This document shows positions 7,824-19,629 of a DNA stretch of 32,000 nucleotides, piece after piece. The DNA comes from Candidatus Methylomirabilis oxygeniifera (GTDB lineage: Bacteria; Methylomirabilota; Methylomirabilia; Methylomirabilales; Methylomirabilaceae): contig FP565575.1 in assembly GCA_000091165.1 (NCBI GenBank), forward strand, positions 1 to 32,000, given 5' to 3'. A model generated the notes under the pieces. It had not been told where the DNA came from, searched no databases, and saw only the letters and a list, made by a program, of their open reading frames with translations. The number at the start of each line of letters is the position of its first letter. Position 1 is the stretch's first letter. A program made the position numbers and the translations under genes.

Positions 7824-8075
7824 AGGCTTGTCAACGTCCAAGGCTGGCGTGATGCCAGGAAGTTGGCGCGTTCCGGCCTCAAGCCGCAGGCGGAGCGCCT
7901 GCTCAACATCCTGGCGCGGAATCCCTATCAGAATCCCCCTCCGTTCGAGCGACTCGTTGGAGACCTTGCGGGCGCCCTATCTCGCAGGATCAGCATTCAA
8001 CACCGGCTCGTATACCAGGTGCTGGACAACATCAAGACTGTCAAGGTCATCCGTCTGTGGACTCGTTACGAATAA
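7824..8075 (+). pseudogene. yoeB: Txe/YoeB-family type II toxin, orphan copy lacking a recognisable start codon and an antitoxin gene
   Basis: The C-terminal 84 codons of tracked ORF 7557..8075 read RLVNVQGWRDARKLARSGLKPQAERLLNILARNPYQNPPPFERLVGDLAGALSRRISIQHRLVYQVLDNIKTVKVIRLWTRYE, a Txe/YoeB signature. No ATG, GTG or TTG sits where Met is expected; the first in-frame start is TTG 7863. The upstream sequence is antisense to the htrA 5' region, not a Phd/YefM gene. Confidence 0.6.
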
Positions 8076-8301
8076 CTCCTCGTCGTTTGTCGGCAACGGC
8101 GGTGCGTGAAAAACATTGACAAGCCCCTGGAACGGCAAGAGAATTACGGCGACCCTTGGAGTTCAAAGGACGTCATAGCCCGACCGGGCTCATCGATAGT
8201 TGGGCATTGCGGAAACGGTATGAGCCGAGTTGCAGGCTTCACCCCGCTTGGCAATGTTTTTGAACACATTCATTTATTCAACACACACAAGAGGTGATCG
8301 T

Positions 8302-9630
8302 ATGCTGAATAAACACCTAAGTGTATTTATATTCACGTTGTTGTCTGTGTTGGTGTTTTCCGGGTGCGCACAGAACGCCGCATACCGCACCGACTATCAA
8401 TCTTGTGTGTACACTCAATCCGGTGATTGTGCTGATCATGCCATACAGCACCATGCACCGGGTCAGTCAGATGAATATTATCTGTCTTTCGTCGAGTTTG
8501 ATGACCAGGGTCAATTATGGGATCGGACACAATTACGCAAAGTGTTGGAGACTTATCAACCCATAGCCGGCATCCACGATGTGTTGCTCGTCGCGTTCAT
8601 CCACGGTTGGCATCACAATGCTGATCCTGAAGACGGCAATGTCAAAGAATTTCGTCGGCTGCTCACTAAACTGTCGCATGTTGAATCCAACGGCGGCACA
8701 GGACGTAAAGTACTGGGGGTGTACATCGGCTGGCGCGGAGAATCTATTACCATCCCGGTGATTAACGCCACGACTTTCTGGGATCGAAAAAACACGGCTC
8801 ATAAGGTGGGGCAACAAGGCGTGACAGAGGTCTTGCTGAAACTGGAAGAGATAGTCAACGTCAAAGCCGGTATGGACGCAGCAACAGCTCAACCGCTTAA
8901 AAGCCGTCTAGTGACCATTGGACACAGCTTTGGCGGTGCCGTACTGTATACGGCCTTACAGCAAATCCTTGAAGATCGTTTTATAGACAGTCGTCAGTAT
9001 AAAACATCTACCGGCGACGCAAATGGTATGGGCGATCTGGTGGTATTAATGAACCCGGCATTTGAAGCGCTGCGTTATGCGACACTGTACGATATTTCGC
9101 AGGACTATTGCCGCAGCTATCGTCTCGGTCAATTCGTTCAATTACCAAAACTGGCAATTCTCACTTCAGAAACTGACCGGGCTACCGGCTGGGCTTTCCC
9201 TGTAGGACGTTTTTTTTCAACTTTTTTTGAAACGCATACAACCCTTAACCGACATCGTTGCACGGATATCGGTAAAATAGACCCGATGAAAATTGCAGAA
9301 GGCGAAGCAGATCGGCATGCCGTCGGCCACTTTAGACCTTATCTTACGCACCGCCTCATTCCCGTAACAACCTCTGCAAAACGCGGTACGAATTTTAATT
9401 ATCGCGCCTTACAAAATCTCTGGTCACGGCAGGAGATATCCGGTTCATTTACATTTGAAAATACAAAACTGATGCACCTGGGGAAGACCGTACCCAATAA
9501 CCCTTATCTCAATATTCAGGTAGATCGGCATTTGATTGAGGGCCACAACGATATTTGGCATGATGATATTGTGAATTTCCTGCGTGATTTGATTATGATT
9601 TCAACCACTCCAGGGCAATTAGCGCAATAG
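8302..9630 (+). CDS. Predicted lipoprotein, alpha/beta-hydrolase fold serine esterase/lipase (DUF900-like)
   Basis: ATG 8302 is preceded by AGAGGTG. Lipobox LVFSGC. Nucleophile elbow GHSFGG and a C-terminal His context EGHNDIW. The gene is clearly AT-richer than its flanks. Confidence 0.7.
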   Translation: MLNKHLSVFIFTLLSVLVFSGCAQNAAYRTDYQSCVYTQSGDCADHAIQHHAPGQSDEYYLSFVEFDDQGQLWDRTQLRKVLETYQPIAGIHDVLLVAFIHGWHHNADPEDGNVKEFRRLLTKLSHVESNGGTGRKVLGVYIGWRGESITIPVINATTFWDRKNTAHKVGQQGVTEVLLKLEEIVNVKAGMDAATAQPLKSRLVTIGHSFGGAVLYTALQQILEDRFIDSRQYKTSTGDANGMGDLVVLMNPAFEALRYATLYDISQDYCRSYRLGQFVQLPKLAILTSETDRATGWAFPVGRFFSTFFETHTTLNRHRCTDIGKIDPMKIAEGEADRHAVGHFRPYLTHRLIPVTTSAKRGTNFNYRALQNLWSRQEISGSFTFENTKLMHLGKTVPNNPYLNIQVDRHLIEGHNDIWHDDIVNFLRDLIMISTTPGQLAQ

Positions 9631-9706
9631 GTTGTGAGCCAGGAAATCAATAAGGGGCAGTACGGAGAGGGCAGATCAACGACCGGTACCCGGTGTAGCG
9701 GTGGGA

Positions 9707-10489
9707 TTAACCCTCCAGGGCCAGGATGCGGAGCATCTCCTCATGGAGCAGGCCGTTGCTGGCCACGATCTGGGGGTTCGAGAGGTGATGCGGCCCACCG
9801 CGAAGATCGGTTATACGGCCGCCCGCCTCTGTGACCATCAGCACGCCTGCCGCCATGTCCCACGGATACAGCTTCAGCTCCCAGAAGGCGTCGAATCGGC
9901 CGGCGGCCACATAACACAGGTCAAGGGCTGCGGAGCCTGGGCGACGGATACCCTGCGCGTGCTTCATGAACCTCACAAAATAATCGAGGTTATTATTCTT
10001 CGTGCCCGCGACGTCATTCGGAAATCCGGTGGCCAGCAGGGCGTCCGACAGTATGTGGATGGTCGAGACCTGTAATCGCTTGCCGTTCAAGAATGCTCCT
10101 GCGCCTCGCTCGGCCGTGAATAGCTCCTCCAGGTTCGGATCGTAGACTAACCCAAAGATCAGCTCGCCGTCCTTTTCCACACCGATCGATACCGAAAAAC
10201 AGGGATAGCCGTGGGCATAATTCGTGGTGCCGTCCAGCGGATCGATGAGCCAGCGGTATCCGGAGTCGCCGTCAAGTCTGGTCCCCTCCTCGCACACCAC
10301 GCTATGGTGGGGCAACTTGCGCCGAATCAGGTCGGCGATCGCTGCCTCCGAGCGGCGATCCACGGTGGTAACGAGGTTCTTCACGCCCTTGTATTCAATG
10401 GTTCGACTCTGCTCGAGTCCCTGACGAAGGATCGCGCCGGCCTCCTTTGCGGCCCGCAGCGCCACCATGCGTATCATGTCAATGTCCAT
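9707..10489 (-). CDS. suhB: Inositol monophosphatase family protein (SuhB-like)
   Basis: 260 aa with motifs EEG, WLIDPLDGTTNY and YPWDMAAG. Confidence 0.9.
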   Translation of the reverse strand: MDIDMIRMVALRAAKEAGAILRQGLEQSRTIEYKGVKNLVTTVDRRSEAAIADLIRRKLPHHSVVCEEGTRLDGDSGYRWLIDPLDGTTNYAHGYPCFSVSIGVEKDGELIFGLVYDPNLEELFTAERGAGAFLNGKRLQVSTIHILSDALLATGFPNDVAGTKNNNLDYFVRFMKHAQGIRRPGSAALDLCYVAAGRFDAFWELKLYPWDMAAGVLMVTEAGGRITDLRGGPHHLSNPQIVASNGLLHEEMLRILALEG

Positions 10490-10826: not shown

Positions 10827-12521
10827 ATGAGTCTTCCGTCGCTGGCTGTCATCCTGCTGGTGGGGATCGCGGTCGGGTATCGGCTGTACAGTCGGTTTGT
10901 GGCCAGACAGTACGGCTTGGACGATACACACCTCACCCCGGCGTGCGAGATGAATGACGGGGTGGATTATGTGCCGACGAAGCCCTTCTACCTGCTGGGC
11001 CAGCACTTCAGCGCCATCGCTGCCGCAGGTCCTATTGCCGGCCCGATTATGGCCGCCCAGATATTCGGGTGGCTTCCCTGTCTGCTCTGGATCGGTCTGG
11101 GGACTATCTTCATCGGGGCGGTCCATGACTTCTCCAGCCTGGCGGCGTCGGTCAAGCACCGTGCCCGGTCGATCGCCGAGATCGTCCGTCTCTACCTGGG
11201 ACAGCGTGGCTGGCTCGCCATGATGCTCTTTATCTGGCTTGCCCTGATCTACGTGATCGTGGCCTTTACCGACATCACGGCGAGCACCTTCGTGGGCAAG
11301 ACGGAAGAGTTTGAGGGGGAGACCTTCGCATTCAACCCTGGTGGGGCCGTGGCCGCCGCCAGCACGATGTACCTGCTCCTGGCCGTCCTCATGGGATTGA
11401 TCCAGAGGCGGTTCGACCCGCCGCTCTGGCTCCAGACGATCATCTTCGTCCCGGCAACCTTAGGCGTCGTCTGGTTCGGCACAAAGATCTCGACGCTCCT
11501 CATCCTGGATGTAAAGATGTGGGGGGTCCTGATCCTGGCCTACTGCTTTGCGGCCTCTCTTTTGCCGATGTGGCTGCTCCTCCAGCCGAGGGGGTACCTC
11601 GGTGGATTTATCCTCTACCTGACCCTCTTTGTCGGCCTCATCGGAATCTTCTTCGGCGGGTTTCAAGTCGAGCAGGAGAGCTTCAAGACCTGGCGCGCGC
11701 CGGGAATGACCGGCGCGCTGTTCCCGTTTCTCTTTGTCACCATCGCCTGCGGGGCCTGTTCCGGATTCCATGGCCTGGTCTGTTCCGGAACGACGTCAAA
11801 ACAGATCGAGAAGGAGAGCCACTGCCGGCCAGTGGGGTACGGCGCCATGCTGCTGGAAGGGTTCGTAGCCTTTATCGCGCTGGCGACCGTCATGATCGTG
11901 GCCCAACCCCAGCTCCAGGGAATGGCGCCCGGTAAGATTTATGGGGACGGGATTGGCAGGTTTCTTGCGATCCTCATCGGGCCGGAACACCTTCGATTCG
12001 CAATGACCTTCGGGGCCATGGCCTTTTCCACCTTTGTCTTTGACACGCTGGATGTCAGCACCCGTCTGAGCCGCTACATCATTCAAGAGCTGTTCAACTG
12101 GTCGGGGAAGAAGGGGGCGATGCTGGCGACCGCACTCACGATAGCGCTTCCCCTCTTTCTCATCATGAGATCGGGCGAAGGCGCGTATCGACTCTTTTGG
12201 ACCCTCTTCGGGACCGGCAATCAACTCCTGGCGGCCCTGACCCTGTTGGGGATTACGGTCTGGCTCAAGAGGTCGGCTCGACCGACCTGGTTCGCCCTGT
12301 TCCCGATGCTCTTCGTTATGACCATGACGATCTGGTCCCTGGTCATCCAGGCGCGGGAGGCCTATGCAGTCATTCTGCAAGAGGGTATCGTCCTAAACAC
12401 GACGATCTTGAATGGGGTTGTCAGTGTGAGCCTGCTGTGTCTCGCGGCTATTCTGATCATTGAGGCGTTGCGAGCCCTCGCCCAACCGGTGATGTCTACC
12501 GTCAAGGCCCCCACTACCTGA
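10827..12521 (+). CDS. cstA: Carbon starvation protein CstA (peptide/pyruvate transporter family)
   Basis: 564-aa polytopic membrane protein. The N-terminal region ...PTKPFYLLGQHFSAIAAAGPIAGPI... is characteristic of CstA. GAAGGAA RBS. Confidence 0.9.
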   Translation: MSLPSLAVILLVGIAVGYRLYSRFVARQYGLDDTHLTPACEMNDGVDYVPTKPFYLLGQHFSAIAAAGPIAGPIMAAQIFGWLPCLLWIGLGTIFIGAVHDFSSLAASVKHRARSIAEIVRLYLGQRGWLAMMLFIWLALIYVIVAFTDITASTFVGKTEEFEGETFAFNPGGAVAAASTMYLLLAVLMGLIQRRFDPPLWLQTIIFVPATLGVVWFGTKISTLLILDVKMWGVLILAYCFAASLLPMWLLLQPRGYLGGFILYLTLFVGLIGIFFGGFQVEQESFKTWRAPGMTGALFPFLFVTIACGACSGFHGLVCSGTTSKQIEKESHCRPVGYGAMLLEGFVAFIALATVMIVAQPQLQGMAPGKIYGDGIGRFLAILIGPEHLRFAMTFGAMAFSTFVFDTLDVSTRLSRYIIQELFNWSGKKGAMLATALTIALPLFLIMRSGEGAYRLFWTLFGTGNQLLAALTLLGITVWLKRSARPTWFALFPMLFVMTMTIWSLVIQAREAYAVILQEGIVLNTTILNGVVSVSLLCLAAILIIEALRALAQPVMSTVKAPTT

Positions 12522-12534
12522 CATGAGGGAGCGA

Positions 12535-13317
12535 ATGCCGGAAAAGGAAGAGCTGCGGACACTTCTGGACTTTGCCGTCGATGCGGCCCGGCAGGCCGGC
12601 GAGATCACCATGGAATATTTCCAGACCGCTTTGTCGCCGGAGCGAAAACCGGACCGAACCTTTGTGACGGCGGCTGACCGTCAAGCTGAGGAGAGGCTCC
12701 GGGCGTTAATCCGACAGGCCTACCCGGACCACGGCATTCTTGGGGAAGAGTTCGGCGAGCAGCAGGGCAGCTCCGGCTGGACCTGGATCATCGACCCGCT
12801 CGACGGGACCGCCTCTTTCCTTCACGGTGTTCCGCTCTTCGGTGTCCTGCTTGGATTAGAGGTCGAGGGAGAGGTTGTTCTGGGGGTGGCGAACTTTCCC
12901 GCGCTGGGTGAGGTGGTCTATGCCGCCAGAGGGTTAGGCTGCTTCTGGAACGGGCGTCGCGCTGTCGTGTCAGGTGTAGACGATCTGAAGGAGGCGCTGC
13001 TCCTGTACACCGACGGCGCCGGCTTCGAGCCGTATGGACGGGAGGCGGCCTTCCGTCATCTGACCGCCGCCGCTCGGATGCACCGGAGCTGGGGCGATTG
13101 TTACGGTCACATTCTGGTTGCAACGGGACGGGCGGAGGTGATGCTCGATCCGGTGATGAACATCTGGGACTGTGCGGCACTGCTGCCGATCCTGCGGGAG
13201 GCGGGTGGAACCTTTACGGATTGGCAGGGGCGGCCGACTATCCGTGGCGGGGATGCCATCTCGACCAATAGGCGGTTACTTGATCAGGTGATGCACGTTG
13301 TCAAGAAGGGGAAGTAA
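12535..13317 (+). CDS. Inositol monophosphatase family protein (HisN/histidinol-phosphatase-like paralog)
   Basis: Motifs GEE, WIIDPLDGTASF and IWDCAAL. ATG 12535 has a GAGGGAG RBS. The tracked ATG 12523 sits 1 nt after the cstA stop. Confidence 0.8.
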   Translation: MPEKEELRTLLDFAVDAARQAGEITMEYFQTALSPERKPDRTFVTAADRQAEERLRALIRQAYPDHGILGEEFGEQQGSSGWTWIIDPLDGTASFLHGVPLFGVLLGLEVEGEVVLGVANFPALGEVVYAARGLGCFWNGRRAVVSGVDDLKEALLLYTDGAGFEPYGREAAFRHLTAAARMHRSWGDCYGHILVATGRAEVMLDPVMNIWDCAALLPILREAGGTFTDWQGRPTIRGGDAISTNRRLLDQVMHVVKKGK

Positions 13318-13416: not shown

Positions 13417-13737
13417 TTATCTCTCTTGCAGCTTGCCTCGCTCTCTGTCCATCGCCTCCTTACCGGCCTGATAGGCGGCGGTGAGGATCGCCTTTTTCTC
13501 TTCAAAGACCTCTTTGCCTACCCCGAACACATCCTCGACCCGATCCCTGACGTCATCCACGAGATCGGTGCTCCGATCCTTGACGTCTGTCGCGAGGTCT
13601 CTGAGGCGAGTGCGGGTCTGTCGGCCCCCCTCAGGAGCGAATAGGAGCGCCAGACTTGCCCCAAGCACACCGCCAACGATAAACGCGAGAGCAACAGATG
13701 CAGGAGCACATCCCCGTTCTTCACTCATGTCCGTCAC
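13417..13737 (-). CDS. YtxH-domain general stress protein
   Basis: 106 aa. N-terminal hydrophobic segment LAFIVGGVLGASLALLFAPEGGRQTR, followed by a charged helical region. Confidence 0.7.
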   Translation of the reverse strand: MTDMSEERGCAPASVALAFIVGGVLGASLALLFAPEGGRQTRTRLRDLATDVKDRSTDLVDDVRDRVEDVFGVGKEVFEEKKAILTAAYQAGKEAMDRERGKLQER

Positions 13738-14123
13738 CTCCTTCCTATGAGCCGTACGATAAGAGTTTTCAGGCCAACCCGAAGGCCGGTCGAAAAGGCA
13801 GCGCCGGTGATCAGCTTCGGAAAAACGAATTGCTGTACTAATTGATTCACATTCCGTACGGTTTGCCCCGCTTCGGCAATCGAGTCAAACGTCCCGCCCA
13901 TTTTCCCTAGCCCGCTGGTCACTTGGTCAGAGGCGCGATTAAGATTTCCGATGACGTCTTTCAGTTCGACCAGCATAGGTCGTAATTCACACTCGACCAC
14001 CCTGAGAAAATCCTCAGCCTGTCTGGCAGTCCTCCGAAGCTGCACAAGCATGGGGATCATGCTGCACACCAGGAGGAAGAATAGGGCCACAATCGCCCAT
14101 AACGCATACTCTACCGTGGACAT
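13734..14123 (-). CDS. DUF948-like membrane-anchored coiled protein
   Basis: 129 aa with a single N-terminal TM helix and then a helical domain. It overlaps ytxH by 4 nt. YtxH/DUF948 pairing is known from Firmicutes. Confidence 0.55.
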   Translation of the reverse strand: MSTVEYALWAIVALFFLLVCSMIPMLVQLRRTARQAEDFLRVVECELRPMLVELKDVIGNLNRASDQVTSGLGKMGGTFDSIAEAGQTVRNVNQLVQQFVFPKLITGAAFSTGLRVGLKTLIVRLIGRR

Positions 14124-14215
14124 CAGTCTCCTCAGCGAATATCTAAAGAACCGATAATCACTATACCCTAATCATCCGTTAAGGTCAAGGTGGAAGATGG
14201 TACTTCATTTTTAGC

Positions 14216-14265
14216 TTGACAATGGGGTCCTCCTTAGTTAAATTACCTTTCGAAGTTGTTCGAAG
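14216..14265 (+). promoter_or_regulatory. Sigma70-like promoter (TTGACA-17-TAAATT) followed by a tandem TTCGAAG repeat
   Basis: TTGACA at 14216-14221 and TAAATT at 14239-14244. TTCGAAG at 14249-14255 and 14259-14265 (10-nt period), each containing a palindromic TTCGAA. Confidence 0.45.
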
Positions 14266-14666
14266 TAAGGCCGCTGGCCCAAATCCTGCCGAATGAGATG
14301 CCGGCCCATGTACCGGAGTAATCGGCACCCGTACCGTTCACACAGGTGAAGATTAGCGTCAGCTCGATCTGAGTGAATCTGAAATGGTGGGCGGTAAGGC
14401 GGAAGGTTGCAAGGTGTGCTGGTTACCGGTTTCAGGAAGAATATCGTAGGCTGATGCGGCACAGCTTGTGCGTAGTATCTGAATTGTAGGATGTTGTAAC
14501 GCTCCGGTCGGATGACAATGTCGCTGCTGCGGTTGTTCCGAGATTGATTCTCCATAGGCGGTCGTGGGTGAGTCCCTATGAGATACAATCTGAGTTGCAT
14601 CGAGCAGTGGATATCGTCGGGTGGCCAGAGTTAACCGCTAACCAGTCAAACTAAGGGAGGATTTCA

Positions 14667-14759
14667 GTGGATCGCGGAGACACAATACTGTTGTGGCTTG
14701 CGGCTGGTGGCCTGTTGCTCTTCGTGACAATCGCTATGGTCATTTCGTTCATGAGTTAG
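14667..14759 (+). CDS. Hypothetical 30-aa single-TM peptide
   Basis: GTG start 6 nt after AAGGGAGG (14653-14660). Sequence: (M)DRGDTILLWLAAGGLLLFVTIAMVISFMS. Not in the ORF track. Confidence 0.45.
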   Translation: MDRGDTILLWLAAGGLLLFVTIAMVISFMS

Positions 14760-15087
14760 TGGCTCCGGTAGATGTAACTTCAGGATCGCACGAACTCATG
14801 ATATCAGAGCAAGAAGTTCCCAGTAGGCCGAAGGTTGGAATGCTCATTTCCGATATCGCGGCTGTACCGGTGAGACCTTTCGCCTAGGGTCCGCGGGTTC
14901 GGGCAATATCGGTATTTGGCGAGTGAGTTCGTAAGAACCTGTCGCCTTTGCTGAGCTTTCGAACCACGAGTAATCCGAGTTGTCCGCTGGTTGCCCGTTG
15001 ATGGGCTGTCGCAGTCGGGTAATCGGACAAGAAGCTGAGGTCGTCGCTTCTTTGATGACTCGGAATCGCGGTTAGGTCAATATGTGT

Positions 15088-15117
15088 AGCCGGGCGCGGT
15101 CTGCGCCCGGCTTTTTC
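15088..15117 (+). terminator. Rho-independent terminator (plus strand only)
   Basis: AGCCGGGCGC-GGTCT-GCGCCCGGCT (10-bp GC-rich stem) followed by TTTTT. The reverse-strand context is not T-rich. Confidence 0.8.
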
Positions 15118-15302
15118 CAGTTTGTGGTCAATTCTGATGACCAGCCGCTCGGCATACTTTTCTCAAAGCTCTGCCTCCATCGAGCAGCGCTACGGATTAA
15201 ATCCCAGGATCTTCTCCAGCGTAAGCATCCCGCTCACCACAACCATGGTCGGTATCTGGACCTTCTGACGTCAGGTGGTTGAGAAGTGAGCGATAAGAAG
15301 CC

Positions 15303-15773
15303 TCACTCCCGAGCACGGACAACGAGGACCGGTCGATCGGCCGACCGCAGCACATGCTCTACTACCGAGCCCAGGAGCAGGTGCTTCATCCCGGAATAGC
15401 CGTGGGATGCCATGACGATGAGATCCGCCCCCTTGGTCTCAGCTTCCTCGCAGATCGCATCATGGACCGATCCGGCGATCTCCACCACTCGCACCTCCGT
15501 TTTCACCTTTCCCTCTGCGCGAACTTCCTCAGGCACAAGCGCTTCCAGCGAAGAGAATAGATCTTCCCGTATCTCTGCCCGCTCCTCAGCAAGCGTCTCC
15601 CCAGGCGTAGGCTGGGAGTAGAGCGGGTCCGGCATCCCGGATACGTCAACCGCGCACAAAAGGATGACAGTGCCGCCCCGTCCTGCCAGGATGCCATAGG
15701 CATGAGGGACCGCGGTATTTCCAAGGGGCGAGAGATCTGTGGTCACCAGCACTTTCTGATATTGTGGCAACAT
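15303..15773 (-). CDS. Universal stress protein (UspA family)
   Basis: Start MLPQYQKVLVTTDLS with an AGGAGG RBS. C-terminal ATP-binding-type motif MASHGYSGMKHLLLGSVVEHVLRSADRPVLVV. The tracked start at 15869 is probably too long. Confidence 0.85.
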   Translation of the reverse strand: MLPQYQKVLVTTDLSPLGNTAVPHAYGILAGRGGTVILLCAVDVSGMPDPLYSQPTPGETLAEERAEIREDLFSSLEALVPEEVRAEGKVKTEVRVVEIAGSVHDAICEEAETKGADLIVMASHGYSGMKHLLLGSVVEHVLRSADRPVLVVRARE

Positions 15774-17700: not shown

Positions 17701-19629
17701 GTGTACGCCCGTCATGGGCATGTGCTTATGGGGTGGAGGTCCCCTGTGGGAGAACCACCGTCAAGGTATGTGACGTCAACCACCAGCTTAAGGCAAGGGC
17801 AGTCCCGCGAGAGGCTGTCCGAAGGAAGCCGGCGGCAAAGCTGCGAGCCGAGGAACACGAACGCCATAGAAGGCCGACATCCCCGGGGCGAGTCAGCACA
17901 ACATGACAAAGCCCTGTGGTTCGGGGGACACGGTAAATGGCGCGGTTGTGCAGCCATAGTGCATGTCCTTATCCGGGGAGATCTGCTCGGCGTGCGGCCC
18001 GTGGTCGCCAGGGGAGCCGGACTGAGGCCCAGCCCGAAAGGGCTGGATACGCCACCGGACCCTACCGCGGCCCGGGCAGCGCGTACCGGAGTAATCCGGG
18101 ACGTAATCGGGCAGAAGTCAGCAGAGGCCATAGTAGGCGGGACGGCCGCAGCGGTCCGATCGCCCAAGGGCCGAACACGATGGCGCAAGGAGGAGCCGTG
18201 AGCCGCTCGGAGGAGACGTCGAACCCGTCCGGGGGAGTCTGCCACCGGCGCGGCCCCACGCAGCCAGCCTTGCACGACCACCTCATGGAGCGGGTGCTGG
18301 ACCGTGCGAACCTGCAACGGGCGTGGAAACAAGTCCAAGCCAACCGAGGTGCCCCGGGCATCGACGGCATGACGGTAGACGAGTTCCCCACCTTTGCCCG
18401 TGCGCACTGGGCCGATATCCGCCAAGCCCTGTTCGATGGCGTCTATCAGCCTTCTCCCGCACGGCGGGTGTTCATCCCTAAGCCCGGTGGTCGTGGTCAG
18501 CGTCCGCTGGGCATCCCCATCGTCCTGGATCGGCTGATCTGTCAAGCCATTCAGCAGGTCCTCACGCCGATCTTCGACCCGCACTTCTCGGAGTCGAGCT
18601 TCGGCTTCCGGCCTCGTCGCGCTGCCCACGGAGCCCTCAGGCAGGTAACGCGCGTCCTCCGGGAAGGCCGCCGCATGGCCGTGGATCTTGATCTGGCTCA
18701 GTTTTTCGACCAGGTCTCCCACGACGTGCTGATCGTCCGATTGAGCCGCAGGGTGTCCGATAGGCGCCTGCTGGCTTTGATCGGCCGCTACCTGCGGGCG
18801 GGCGTCCTGGCCGGGGAGGTCATTCAGGCAACCGAACTCGGGACCCCACAAGGGTCTCCGCTTTCGCCGTTGCTCGGCAACATCCTGTTGGACGACCTCG
18901 ACAAGGAACTGGAACGACGCCGGCTGCGTTTTGCCCGTTACGCTGATGATCTGCTCATCGTGGTCAACAGCGTGCGGGCCGGCCTGCGCGTCAAGGCCAG
19001 CCTCACCCGGTACCTGACCCGCCGGTTGAAACTGGTCGTCAATGAAGCCAAGAGCCGCGTGTGTCCCATCCGCGAGTGCACCTTCCTCGGGTTCACCTTT
19101 CGAGGGAGCAAACTCCGCTGGTCGGACGAGGCCTTCGCAGACTTCCAATACCGGGTCCGTCAACTGACCGGTCGCAGTTGGGGGGTCTCGATGTCCTACC
19201 GGCTCCGCCGACTTGCCCAGTACCTGAGAGGCTGGATGAACTACTTTGGCATCTCGGAGTATTACCGGCCCGTGCCGGAAATCGACCACTGGATTCGACG
19301 GCGTCTCCGTATGTGCTATTGGAAACAGTGGCGCTGGGCGCGAACCAAGGTGCGTCACCTTCTGGCCTTGGGGACCAGCCGGAGTCATGCGATCCTGACC
19401 GCCATTAGTCGGAAAAGCTACTGGCATCTGTCCAAGACCCTGGCAACCCAGACCGGCATGACCAATCAGTGGCTTGCCAGCCAGGGGCTTCTCTCGGTCC
19501 GTGCCCTGTGGATCAAGGCCCATGGCTACGCCTGAGGTTTCGTGTGCTCCACCGTCGTGAACCGCCCGGTGCGGACCCGCATGCCGGGTGGTGTGGGGGC
19601 TGGGGGTTAAAAACCCCCGGCTACCCGAT
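17701..19629 (+). mobile_element. Bacterial group II intron (about 1.93 kb) with an intron-encoded RT/maturase; the 5' boundary is tentative
   Basis: The 5' end GTGTACGCCCGTCATGGGC resembles GUGYG plus the first DI hairpin. Domain V is at 19561-19592, with a 2-nt bulge and a 4-nt loop. Domain VI is at 19596-19626 with bulged A 19623, 6 nt before the 3' end ...CUACCCGAU. The RT ORF sits in domain IV. Confidence 0.75.
18180..19535 (+). CDS. Group II intron reverse transcriptase/maturase (no En/HNH domain evident)
   Basis: RT blocks RRVFIPKPGGRGQRPLGIPIVLDRLICQA, DLDLAQFFDQVSHD, GTPQGSPLSPLLGNILLDDLD and RYADDLLIVV (YADD). C-terminal X/maturase region LRGWMNYFGISEYY. ATG 18180 is preferred over the tracked 17937. 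Confidence 0.9.
   Translation: MAQGGAVSRSEETSNPSGGVCHRRGPTQPALHDHLMERVLDRANLQRAWKQVQANRGAPGIDGMTVDEFPTFARAHWADIRQALFDGVYQPSPARRVFIPKPGGRGQRPLGIPIVLDRLICQAIQQVLTPIFDPHFSESSFGFRPRRAAHGALRQVTRVLREGRRMAVDLDLAQFFDQVSHDVLIVRLSRRVSDRRLLALIGRYLRAGVLAGEVIQATELGTPQGSPLSPLLGNILLDDLDKELERRRLRFARYADDLLIVVNSVRAGLRVKASLTRYLTRRLKLVVNEAKSRVCPIRECTFLGFTFRGSKLRWSDEAFADFQYRVRQLTGRSWGVSMSYRLRRLAQYLRGWMNYFGISEYYRPVPEIDHWIRRRLRMCYWKQWRWARTKVRHLLALGTSRSHAILTAISRKSYWHLSKTLATQTGMTNQWLASQGLLSVRALWIKAHGYA

Follow-up and report, generated by a model that had tools for sequence, protein, structure and literature searches.

Toxin messenger RNAs (mRNAs) of the hok/sok and aapA1 type are roughly 200-400 nt long, and in the tisB/istR-1, zorO/orzO and dinQ/agrB systems a trans-acting antitoxin is encoded divergently beside the toxin gene. 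The structural descriptors of type I toxin mRNAs used by T1TAdb include pairing between the Shine-Dalgarno (SD) sequence and an anti-SD, 5' stem-loops, a terminator hairpin and 5'-3' long-distance interactions (PMC8594479). Here we compare with such systems a locus in the first 32,000 nt of contig FP565575.1 of Candidatus Methylomirabilis oxygeniifera (hereafter the window), where a 1.1 kb gap between genes is predicted to hold a self-contained transcription unit (14206-15116, plus strand), a conserved and previously unannotated gene. The firm part of our account, which comes from comparative sequence analysis, is an unannotated gene with a 30-aa predicted membrane peptide and a long RNA of conserved fold. 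Beyond this, we judge it somewhat better than an even bet that the unit is a translationally gated, type I toxin-like small-peptide mRNA whose 5' end locks both its ribosome-binding region and the interior of its open reading frame (ORF).

Transcription unit and its conservation

The unit consists, in order, of a promoter, a leader of ~415 nt, an SD sequence, a 30-codon ORF, a tail of ~330 nt and an intrinsic terminator. A sequence-only reading of the window had proposed a plus-strand unit of this make-up, and every element it listed was recovered where it had been placed, with promoter and terminator conserved among orthologues. The predicted transcript would run from ~14252 to 15116 (plus strand, ~865 nt), its start being placed by the spacing from the -10 hexamer.

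Contigs with related units were retrieved through orthologues of the universal stress protein (USP) gene that lies convergent to the unit, and metagenomes were scanned with the invariant 20-mer GTGGCTTGCGGCTGGTGGCC. In Methylomirabilis-type genomes and metagenomes these searches turned up eleven distinct copies of the unit: that of the window, L015 (95% identical to it), L001 (88%), L003/L004 (M. lanthanidiphila, 78%), L007/L008, L005/L006, L020, L023, L022, and the more distant L009/L010 and L027. The metagenome scan gave two true loci and nine chance matches; a scan of viral contigs did not find the 20-mer, so that nothing points to descent from a phage. Alignment A3 covers nine units, each from its -35 hexamer through the terminator.

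The promoter (14206-14244, plus strand) comprises an A/T-rich CATTTTTA (14206-14213), a -35 hexamer TTGACA (14216-14221), a 17-nt spacer and a -10 hexamer TAAATT (14239-14244). This sigma70-like site, which the earlier reading had recognised at 14216-14244, scores 10/12, occupies identical alignment columns in 9/9 aligned orthologues and is present in L009 and L027 as well; CATTTTTA, just 5' of the -35 hexamer, is retained even in loci with a different neighbouring gene. At the other end, the strand-specific terminator that had been placed at 15088-15117 held up equally well. It spans 15088-15116 (plus strand), with stem arms AGCCGGGCGC and GCGCCCGGCU, a 5-nt loop and a U-run, and its G+C stem (15088-15112, 10 bp) together with the U-run folds at -22.8 kcal/mol (z = -4.3). 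A terminator is present in 9/11 units, with an invariant stem and variable loops. A simple terminator scan did not pick up this site; folding did.

Around the inferred start (~14252) lie tandem copies of TTCGAAG (14249-14255 and 14259-14265, plus strand), the second of which belongs to a proposed long-range helix (H1, below). The copies are present as the sequence-only reading had described, and the second is kept in 6/9 orthologues of alignment A3, with GTCGAAG in two more. The first is poorly conserved, neither occurs in L009 or L027, and the motif is not enriched over the whole window (7 occurrences versus 4.4 expected).

Synteny on the terminator side is constant: in 11/11 distinct units the unit is convergent to a USP orthologue, 95-185 nt from the USP stop codon. 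In the window this gene lies at 15303-15773 (minus strand; Pfam Usp) and encodes 156 aa from an internal ATG within a 188-aa ORF. The promoter-side neighbour varies, being DUF948 in most loci, an ABM-domain gene in L022, an alpha/beta-hydrolase gene in L009 and, in L027, an uncharacterised ORF of 70 aa beyond which lies an acetyltransferase gene; the metagenome-assembled genome (MAG) that supplied L022 has DUF948 at another place (L002), without the unit there. The gap with the unit was not seen beside the more distant USP homologues L024-L026 (66-76% identical to the USP of the window). In nearly all related contigs the ~1 kb unit region is without gene calls, except that calls of neighbouring genes reach too far in L005 and L010 and that L027 has a 70-aa call on the minus strand.

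The peptide gene

The ORF at 14667-14759 (plus strand) begins with GTG, ends with TAG and encodes MDRGDTILLWLAAGGLLLFVTIAMVISFMS, a 30-aa product that opens with MDRGDTILLWLAAGG and has one predicted transmembrane helix, residues 6-29 forming an unbroken hydrophobic stretch. It stands behind the SD sequence AAGGGAGG (14653-14660), and both are conserved in all orthologues, with SD and start codon invariant. Over 10 orthologues, minimum counts of changes at codon positions 1/2/3 were 7/0/16, and 19 synonymous codon variants compare with four conservative replacements (L/I, I/V, V/I and I/L); residues 1-17, MDRGDTILLWLAAGGLL, do not vary. An eleventh variant, in L027, adds further synonymous changes together with T21S and M24L. 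The hydrophobic ORF behind an SD that had been picked out by eye thus carries a coding signature, and, judged by this substitution pattern, the micro-ORF is a genuine coding gene under purifying selection for a one-helix hydrophobic peptide. Fewer than 60 aa, hydrophobic, with a predicted transmembrane helix and encoded by a stand-alone small gene, the peptide is of the size and character expected of a type I toxin.

Database searches, one of the checks proposed earlier, returned no Pfam, NCBIfam or PDB chain match to the peptide at E<=10, and an exact look-up of the 30-aa peptide and the 188-aa USP ORF gave no record. Among 1.84 billion representative proteins, a single 50%-identity cluster was related, that of MDRGDTILLWLAAGGLLTFVTVAMVISFI, a metagenomic "hypothetical protein" of 29 aa for which two metagenome contigs carry gene calls. 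With MDRGDTILLWLAAGGLLTFVTVAMVISFI as its sole relative, the peptide family appears confined to the Methylomirabilis-type lineage.

No further conserved frame was found on either strand, and codon periodicity is missing from the unit outside the micro-ORF. This bears on the idea that the gap is what is left of a decayed protein gene, or just random spacer between genes, for which the 120-aa ORF on the minus strand might speak. That ORF, which the sequence-only reading had already found not credible, has neither a homologue nor a Pfam domain; it carries a frameshift in L001 and is cut short in various ways in other orthologues. A chimera of the 21 stop-free six-frame segments (>=28 aa) matched nothing among 5.8 billion proteins, a weak negative given that the 8000-candidate prefilter was possibly saturated; it is on the conservation pattern that we drop the pseudogene idea, since the homology search is weak. 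Compared with L001, the window has an identity of 0.90 in the RNA and of 0.98 in the ORF, while third codon positions in the adjacent genes give 0.65-0.84. With the region more conserved than its neighbours' synonymous sites, and the micro-ORF conserved within it, a decayed gene or spacer is effectively excluded and has next to no probability in our estimate.

RNA fold and sequence constraint

On the plus strand the transcript folds at -339 kcal/mol, well below shuffled sequences (z = -4.96); the minus strand also lies below its shuffles (z = -3.55). The RNAalifold consensus of alignment A3 has 175 pairs, or 168 once the untranscribed promoter is removed, and 92.9% of the consensus-pair cells across the nine sequences form standard pairs, versus 33-42% in slid controls. 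Covariation in homologous intergenic regions had been named as a check on a structured RNA, and here 32 pairs are changed on both sides, compared with 7-15 in slid controls and 18.7 ± 3.0 in column shuffles (0/500 as high). The earlier suggestion of a structured RNA of ~860 nt carrying a micro-ORF is thus upheld in a nine-sequence consensus.

Two domains of hairpins occupy the leader. Domain 1 (14291-14432, plus strand; consensus helices 4-8) includes pairs changed on both sides, and domain 2 (14501-14631, plus strand; helices 13-16) has four doubly changed pairs in helix 13. In L022 both domains lack exactly their apical parts (alignment columns 130-187 and 311-405, the deletion in domain 1 being clean) and keep their basal helices; the tip of domain 2 is missing from L020, L023 and L005 as well, again with the basal helix kept, and in the window lineage a 3' hairpin contains paired insertions. 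These insertions and deletions, falling at hairpin tips or on both sides of a helix, support the fold independently of the alignment-derived pair counts. The leader domains are largely absent in L009 and L027. Beyond the ORF, hairpins at 14834-14954 (plus strand; helices 21-25) include helix 22, in which 6/9 pairs are doubly changed, and helix 21, which is retained with changed pairs in the divergent L009. On these comparisons, the RNA keeps a common fold of long hairpins in leader and tail, with covariation.

The region that follows (14968-15087, plus strand) is variable, with insertions specific to the window lineage at 14985-14995 and 15021-15028, a cross-species identity of 0.28-0.58 and a better conserved last ~40 nt. 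A stem of TTGTCCG with CGGACAA (14980-15030) and a third GTAATCGG, both singled out in the sequence-only reading, fall in window-lineage-specific insertions and are not conserved.

Third codon positions of the USP gene, which are 0.48-0.78 identical between species, served as a neutral yardstick. Against this, identity across species is 0.79-0.97 in the first ~40 transcribed nt, 0.79-1.0 in the 35 nt around the SD, 0.85-0.97 in the ORF, 0.69-0.86 in the promoter and 0.71-0.86 in the terminator. The hairpin domains (0.50-0.78) are about neutral, indicating that their fold is conserved and not their sequence, and the distal 3' region falls below neutral. By this measure constraint falls on the promoter and the first ~40 transcribed nt, on SD region and ORF, and on the terminator; among non-coding parts it is strongest at the 5' end (~40 nt) and in the SD region.

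This distribution is relevant to an alternative in which the unit is a dual-function riboregulator of the RNAIII, SgrS or SR1 kind, whose structured domains would target other mRNAs or proteins, with the peptide as a separate second output. Two thirds of the RNA is non-coding and nevertheless keeps its fold; the final ~70 nt before the terminator are identical in the window and L001, as in 3'-derived small RNAs (sRNAs); and the size and layout (a small ORF in the middle, many hairpins, a strong terminator) recall RNAIII. However, the hairpins are near-neutral in sequence and shortened or lost in L022, L009 and L027, so that no conserved single-stranded seed is evident, and domains that are sequence-free and dispensable in some lineages disfavour action in trans. 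The strongest non-coding constraint sits where action in cis on the unit's own ribosome-binding region is possible, and a search of the window gave no complementary target. Of the two halves of the dual-function definition, the substitution pattern bears out the coding of a peptide. We regard a dual-function riboregulator as unlikely.

Predicted long-range pairings of the 5' end

In the consensus fold, three segments of the 5'-terminal stretch (14252-14290, plus strand) have distant partners downstream. This stretch is 85-95% identical across species in which third positions of the USP gene agree at 56-78%. Segment A (GUUGUUCGAAG, 14255-14265) pairs with UUUCGAACCAC (14957-14967) in a 5'-3' long-distance helix, H1; segment B (AGGCCGCUGGCC, 14268-14279) pairs with GGCUGGUGGCCU (14702-14713), within ORF codons 12-16, in H2; and segment C (AAUCCUGCC, 14282-14290), an anti-SD, pairs in H3 with GGGAGGAUU (14655-14663), part of the SD and its 3' flank (14653-14663). 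The start codon and codons 1-11, between H3 and H2, lie in a small invariant hairpin (helices 17 and 18).

Of these helices H2 is the one with significant support from pairing energy. All 12 pairs form in 9/9 sequences, and the four single changes are all to G-U. It is the top duplex site for segment B in 9/9 orthologues (-23.0 to -17.6 kcal/mol), ahead of the runner-up each time, and only 5/300 shuffled segments had an equally good site anywhere in the RNA. Among fourfold-degenerate sites, 1/4 vary in the H2 partner, by a change that keeps the pairing, versus 9/11 in the rest of the ORF. H3 is paired in 98.6% of cells and provides the main predicted SD partner in 4/9 single-sequence ensembles; single-sequence thermodynamics was dropped as proof of the SD partner, being inconsistent across orthologues. 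H1, with 84% of cells paired and one covarying pair (U-A or C-G, three sequences each), joins the second and third TTCGAA palindromes and appears in the window's single-sequence minimum-energy fold. The tandem and third TTCGAA motifs may perhaps be accounted for by this pairing of copies 2 and 3 (14255-14265 with 14957-14967).

L009 and L027 have different, short leaders (~90 nt), early segments of which are complementary to codons ~9-16 (-16 to -22 kcal/mol). This is suggestive of a repeat of H2-type pairing, with rival sites of similar energy existing. We also observed near copies of the ORF stretch GGCUGGUGGC in these leaders, at RNA positions 35 and 148 in L009 (counted from just after the -10 hexamer) and, reading GCUGGAGGCC, in L027. 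Such copies could compete for one pairing partner, as a mimic or an alternative-structure element.

A further alternative would have the unit as an ordinary small membrane protein gene, encoding for example an accessory subunit or regulator of a membrane complex, with long untranslated regions (UTRs), incidental pairing and a 5' end that is a DNA operator for a transcription factor. It gains from the tandem TTCGAAG copies, which are spaced by 10 bp and overlap the inferred +1, from the energies of the anti-SD and 5'-3' helices, which are not significant, and from stable vertical inheritance near stress genes (USP, DUF948, YtxH and CstA). It leaves unexplained, however, a common fold with compensatory changes over ~700 nt of UTR and the frozen synonymous sites of codons 12-15, which match the 5' segment; and an operator sits poorly with a first TTCGAAG copy that is weakly conserved and with the loss of both copies in L009 and L027. 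An ordinary membrane protein gene seems to us rather unlikely.

Searches for antitoxins and known RNA families

No Rfam family matched the unit at its gathering score, and at E<=10 over 14050-15350 the scan gave just a spurious 13-nt match to the S4 leader. Covariance models of hok/sok, tisB-istR, ldr/rdl, sib, ohsC, ratA, SR4 and fst found no match; nor did those of tmRNA, RNase P, 6S, SRP, riboswitches or OLE/GOLLD/ROOL/HEARO, and ARAGORN detected neither tmRNA nor tRNA in the unit. For tmRNA, RNase P, 6S, SRP and common riboswitches this is in line with what had been judged by eye. Literature searches brought up nothing relevant on Methylomirabilis small or intergenic RNAs.

The same scan identifies a complete group II intron at 17801-19629 (plus strand; Rfam D1D4-3, D1D4-1 and domain V/VI), with a 532-aa ORF for a reverse transcriptase/maturase inside it (17937-19535; RVT_1 and GIIM). 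In 14050-15350 the scan finds nothing, so that the unit has no match to the group II intron models. The leader (14310-14323) shares a 14-nt identity, GTACCGGAGTAATC, with this intron (18083-18110 region). The recurring GTAATC(C/G)G motif noted in the sequence-only reading is indeed enriched in the window (6 occurrences versus 1.7 expected, of which the unit has three and the intron two, these last within 20 nt), but only its first copy in the unit is conserved. In the intron it forms a CCGGA-GUAA-UCCGG hairpin, and the GUAA is not conserved among orthologues of the unit. Kinship with the intron through GTACCGGAGTAATC or the motif was rejected, the match (E ~0.1-0.25, without extension) being treated as chance.

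These searches bear on the view that the micro-ORF is fortuitous and the unit a large non-coding structured RNA, be it of the OLE, GOLLD or ROOL kind or a group II intron that has degenerated and lacks an ORF. Strong fold z-scores, the motif enrichment and the 14-nt identity could be cited in its favour. Set against them are the unchanged second codon positions, the synonymous variants and the invariant SD and start codon described above, hairpin cores without sequence conservation, the lack of any Rfam family even at E<=10 and a 14-nt match that does not extend. A purely non-coding RNA is effectively excluded, and we hold it to be very improbable.

The suggestion of a type I toxin-like locus, which had stood beside that of a regulatory small-membrane-peptide locus, drew a mixed answer from these data: complementarity of the 5' end to both the SD and the interior of the ORF was borne out, whereas no antitoxin RNA and no similarity of the unit to known type I families were found. 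A complementarity between 14690-14703 and 15230-15243 was set aside as peculiar to the window, its second arm lying in spacer that is deleted in other species. On the USP strand no hairpin with a U-run was seen by eye between the USP stop codon and the unit's terminator (15117-15302), and the terminator hairpin of the unit, read on the minus strand, has no U-run in most orthologues, a U-rich stretch occurring in L005 only (UUUCUUU). With no evident terminator on that strand, USP transcripts may read antisense into the unit. Such read-through is a possible substitute for an antitoxin, a distant sRNA being another option, and it might also explain the constant adjacency of unit and USP gene.

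Genomic neighbourhood

The gap is bordered by a DUF948/YtxH pair (13417-14123, minus strand) on one side and the USP gene on the other, with cstA and an inositol monophosphatase gene further left. The DUF948 protein (13734-14123, minus strand) is 82% identical to its counterpart in an M. oxygeniifera MAG (contig L001), and the window aligns end to end with that contig from 10.6 to 16.0 kb (88%). Genes of the inositol-monophosphatase family lie on both sides of cstA (10827-12521), at 9707-10489 (minus strand) and 12523-13317 (plus strand); together with cstA, DUF948, YtxH and USP they look like a starvation/stress gene cluster.

On the minus strand, a promoter-like site, TTGACC-17-TATAGT (14160-14188), stands back-to-back with the promoter of the unit and is probably the DUF948-YtxH promoter; the block GAGGTCAAGGTGGAAGAT at the same position is conserved solely where DUF948 adjoins the unit. 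Further away, ~1.8 kb of the window (7845-9661; G+C 0.43-0.50 versus ~0.59 nearby) is missing from the syntenic contig L001 and contains a 466-aa ORF (8230-9630, plus strand) without a Pfam domain; this segment looks like a recent insertion.

A model of translational gating

In the favoured model of a translationally gated mRNA, a strong sigma-70-type promoter would drive an mRNA of ~865 nt that stops at the intrinsic terminator and has a single-helix peptide of 29-30 residues as its sole product. In the full-length RNA, the 5'-terminal segment would fold back across ~400 nt, AGGCCGCUGGCC pairing with codons 12-16 and AAUCCUGCC with the SD, and the start codon would be held in the small hairpin between them. 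Folded back onto both SD and ORF, the primary transcript would be translationally closed. The peptide would then be made only upon a trigger, for example processing of the 5' end, melting or a trans-acting factor, and the two leader domains would serve mainly as structured spacers that bring both ends of the junction together. Because this design is shared with type I toxin mRNAs (hok, aapA1, tisB, zorO and dinQ), a tightly gated, membrane-acting peptide is by analogy the most likely product, possibly one linked to stress.

Several observations weigh against this model. The predicted SD partner differs in 5/9 single-sequence ensembles, neither the anti-SD helix H3 nor the 5'-3' helix H1 is better than shuffled segments by energy, and H2 and H3 are almost invariant and hence without true covariation. 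The 5' stretch GGCCGCUGGCC can form a small local hairpin of its own (-5.6 kcal/mol), the conserved 5' end could instead be a DNA operator (the tandem TTCGAAG), and the consensus fold was both derived from and scored on one alignment, which favours the fold. The type I analogy breaks at the antitoxin. The plus-strand promoter is the only conserved promoter-like site on either strand, with no conserved antisense promoter; no conserved divergent element lies upstream, the sequence 5' of CATTTTTAnCTTGACA being unrelated where the neighbours differ; and no complementary antitoxin locus was found elsewhere in the 32 kb window. The unit also looks vertically inherited and, as far as visible, is apparently single-copy, and at ~865 nt it greatly exceeds the known type I toxin mRNAs in length.

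The unit might be the founding member of an undescribed class of multi-domain RNAs of 0.65-0.9 kb whose 5' end would lock the SD and the ORF interior and which would be limited to NC10 bacteria of the Methylomirabilis type; we offer this tentatively and think it doubtful. If true, it would be the first type I toxin-like module reported in phylum NC10 and one without a classical adjacent antisense antitoxin; alternatively, the folded leader and tail domains would sense a stress signal and thereby free the peptide.

Our data emphasize that a 1 kb annotation blank in Methylomirabilis, which are nitrite-dependent methane oxidisers, is among the better-conserved features of its neighbourhood, and that small membrane peptides and RNA control elements are routinely overlooked by annotation. 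Should the fold-back model be correct, the gated toxin-mRNA design would reach a deep-branching phylum in which, as far as we found, none is catalogued, and a 5'-into-ORF geometry without an obvious antisense partner raises the question of what opens the RNA. The constant pairing with USP within a starvation/stress cluster points to a connection with stress or dormancy in organisms that grow slowly and are hard to culture.

Comparison with known systems

The design proposed here is known in kind, namely that of an mRNA for a small hydrophobic peptide which occludes its own ribosome-binding site in cis. What is unusual in the unit is its length (~865 nt), a 5' end that would pair inside the ORF over a structured spacer of ~400 nt, its occurrence in this phylum and the lack of an evident antisense partner. 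The closest parallels are hok/sok and aapA1/IsoA1 (of Enterobacteria and Helicobacter pylori), which likewise combine a small one-helix hydrophobic peptide (theirs being ~30-50 aa) with a stable, highly folded mRNA that has its own promoter and intrinsic terminator (here predicted). In the favoured model the SD would, as in those systems, be sequestered by a distant anti-SD, the 5' end would engage in long-distance pairing and the start region would lie in hairpins (PMC8594479). Unlike in hok or aapA1, the anti-SD of the unit sits at the 5' end, ~370 nt upstream, and is supplemented by a predicted 12-bp helix reaching into codons 12-16; searches gave no antisense RNA gene and no sequence or Rfam similarity; and the unit lies on the chromosome of NC10 bacteria, apparently as a single copy passed on vertically.

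With tisB/istR-1, zorO/orzO and dinQ/agrB, type I toxins whose primary transcripts are inactive until processed at the 5' end, the unit shares a primary transcript predicted to be inert through its 5'-UTR structure, a neighbourhood of stress genes and a short, very hydrophobic peptide. It differs from them in a leader that is 2-4 times longer and in the sequence upstream of its promoter, which is not conserved where the neighbours differ.

Two groups of longer RNAs also resemble the unit in part. RNAIII (hld, Staphylococcus aureus), SgrS/SgrT and SR1/SR1P are similar as long multi-hairpin RNAs with a tiny ORF between structured domains and a strong terminator, whereas the unit is unrelated to them in sequence, shows no evidence of trans targets, has hairpins that are not conserved in sequence and encodes a peptide of transmembrane type, not an amphipathic or soluble one. 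OLE, GOLLD, ROOL, HEARO and raiA fall in the same size class (0.6-0.9 kb) and are alike in their many conserved helices and narrow phylogenetic range. Unlike them, the unit matches no covariance model and contains a clearly coding ORF, and its conservation is concentrated not at junctions or loops but at the translation-initiation region and the 5' end.

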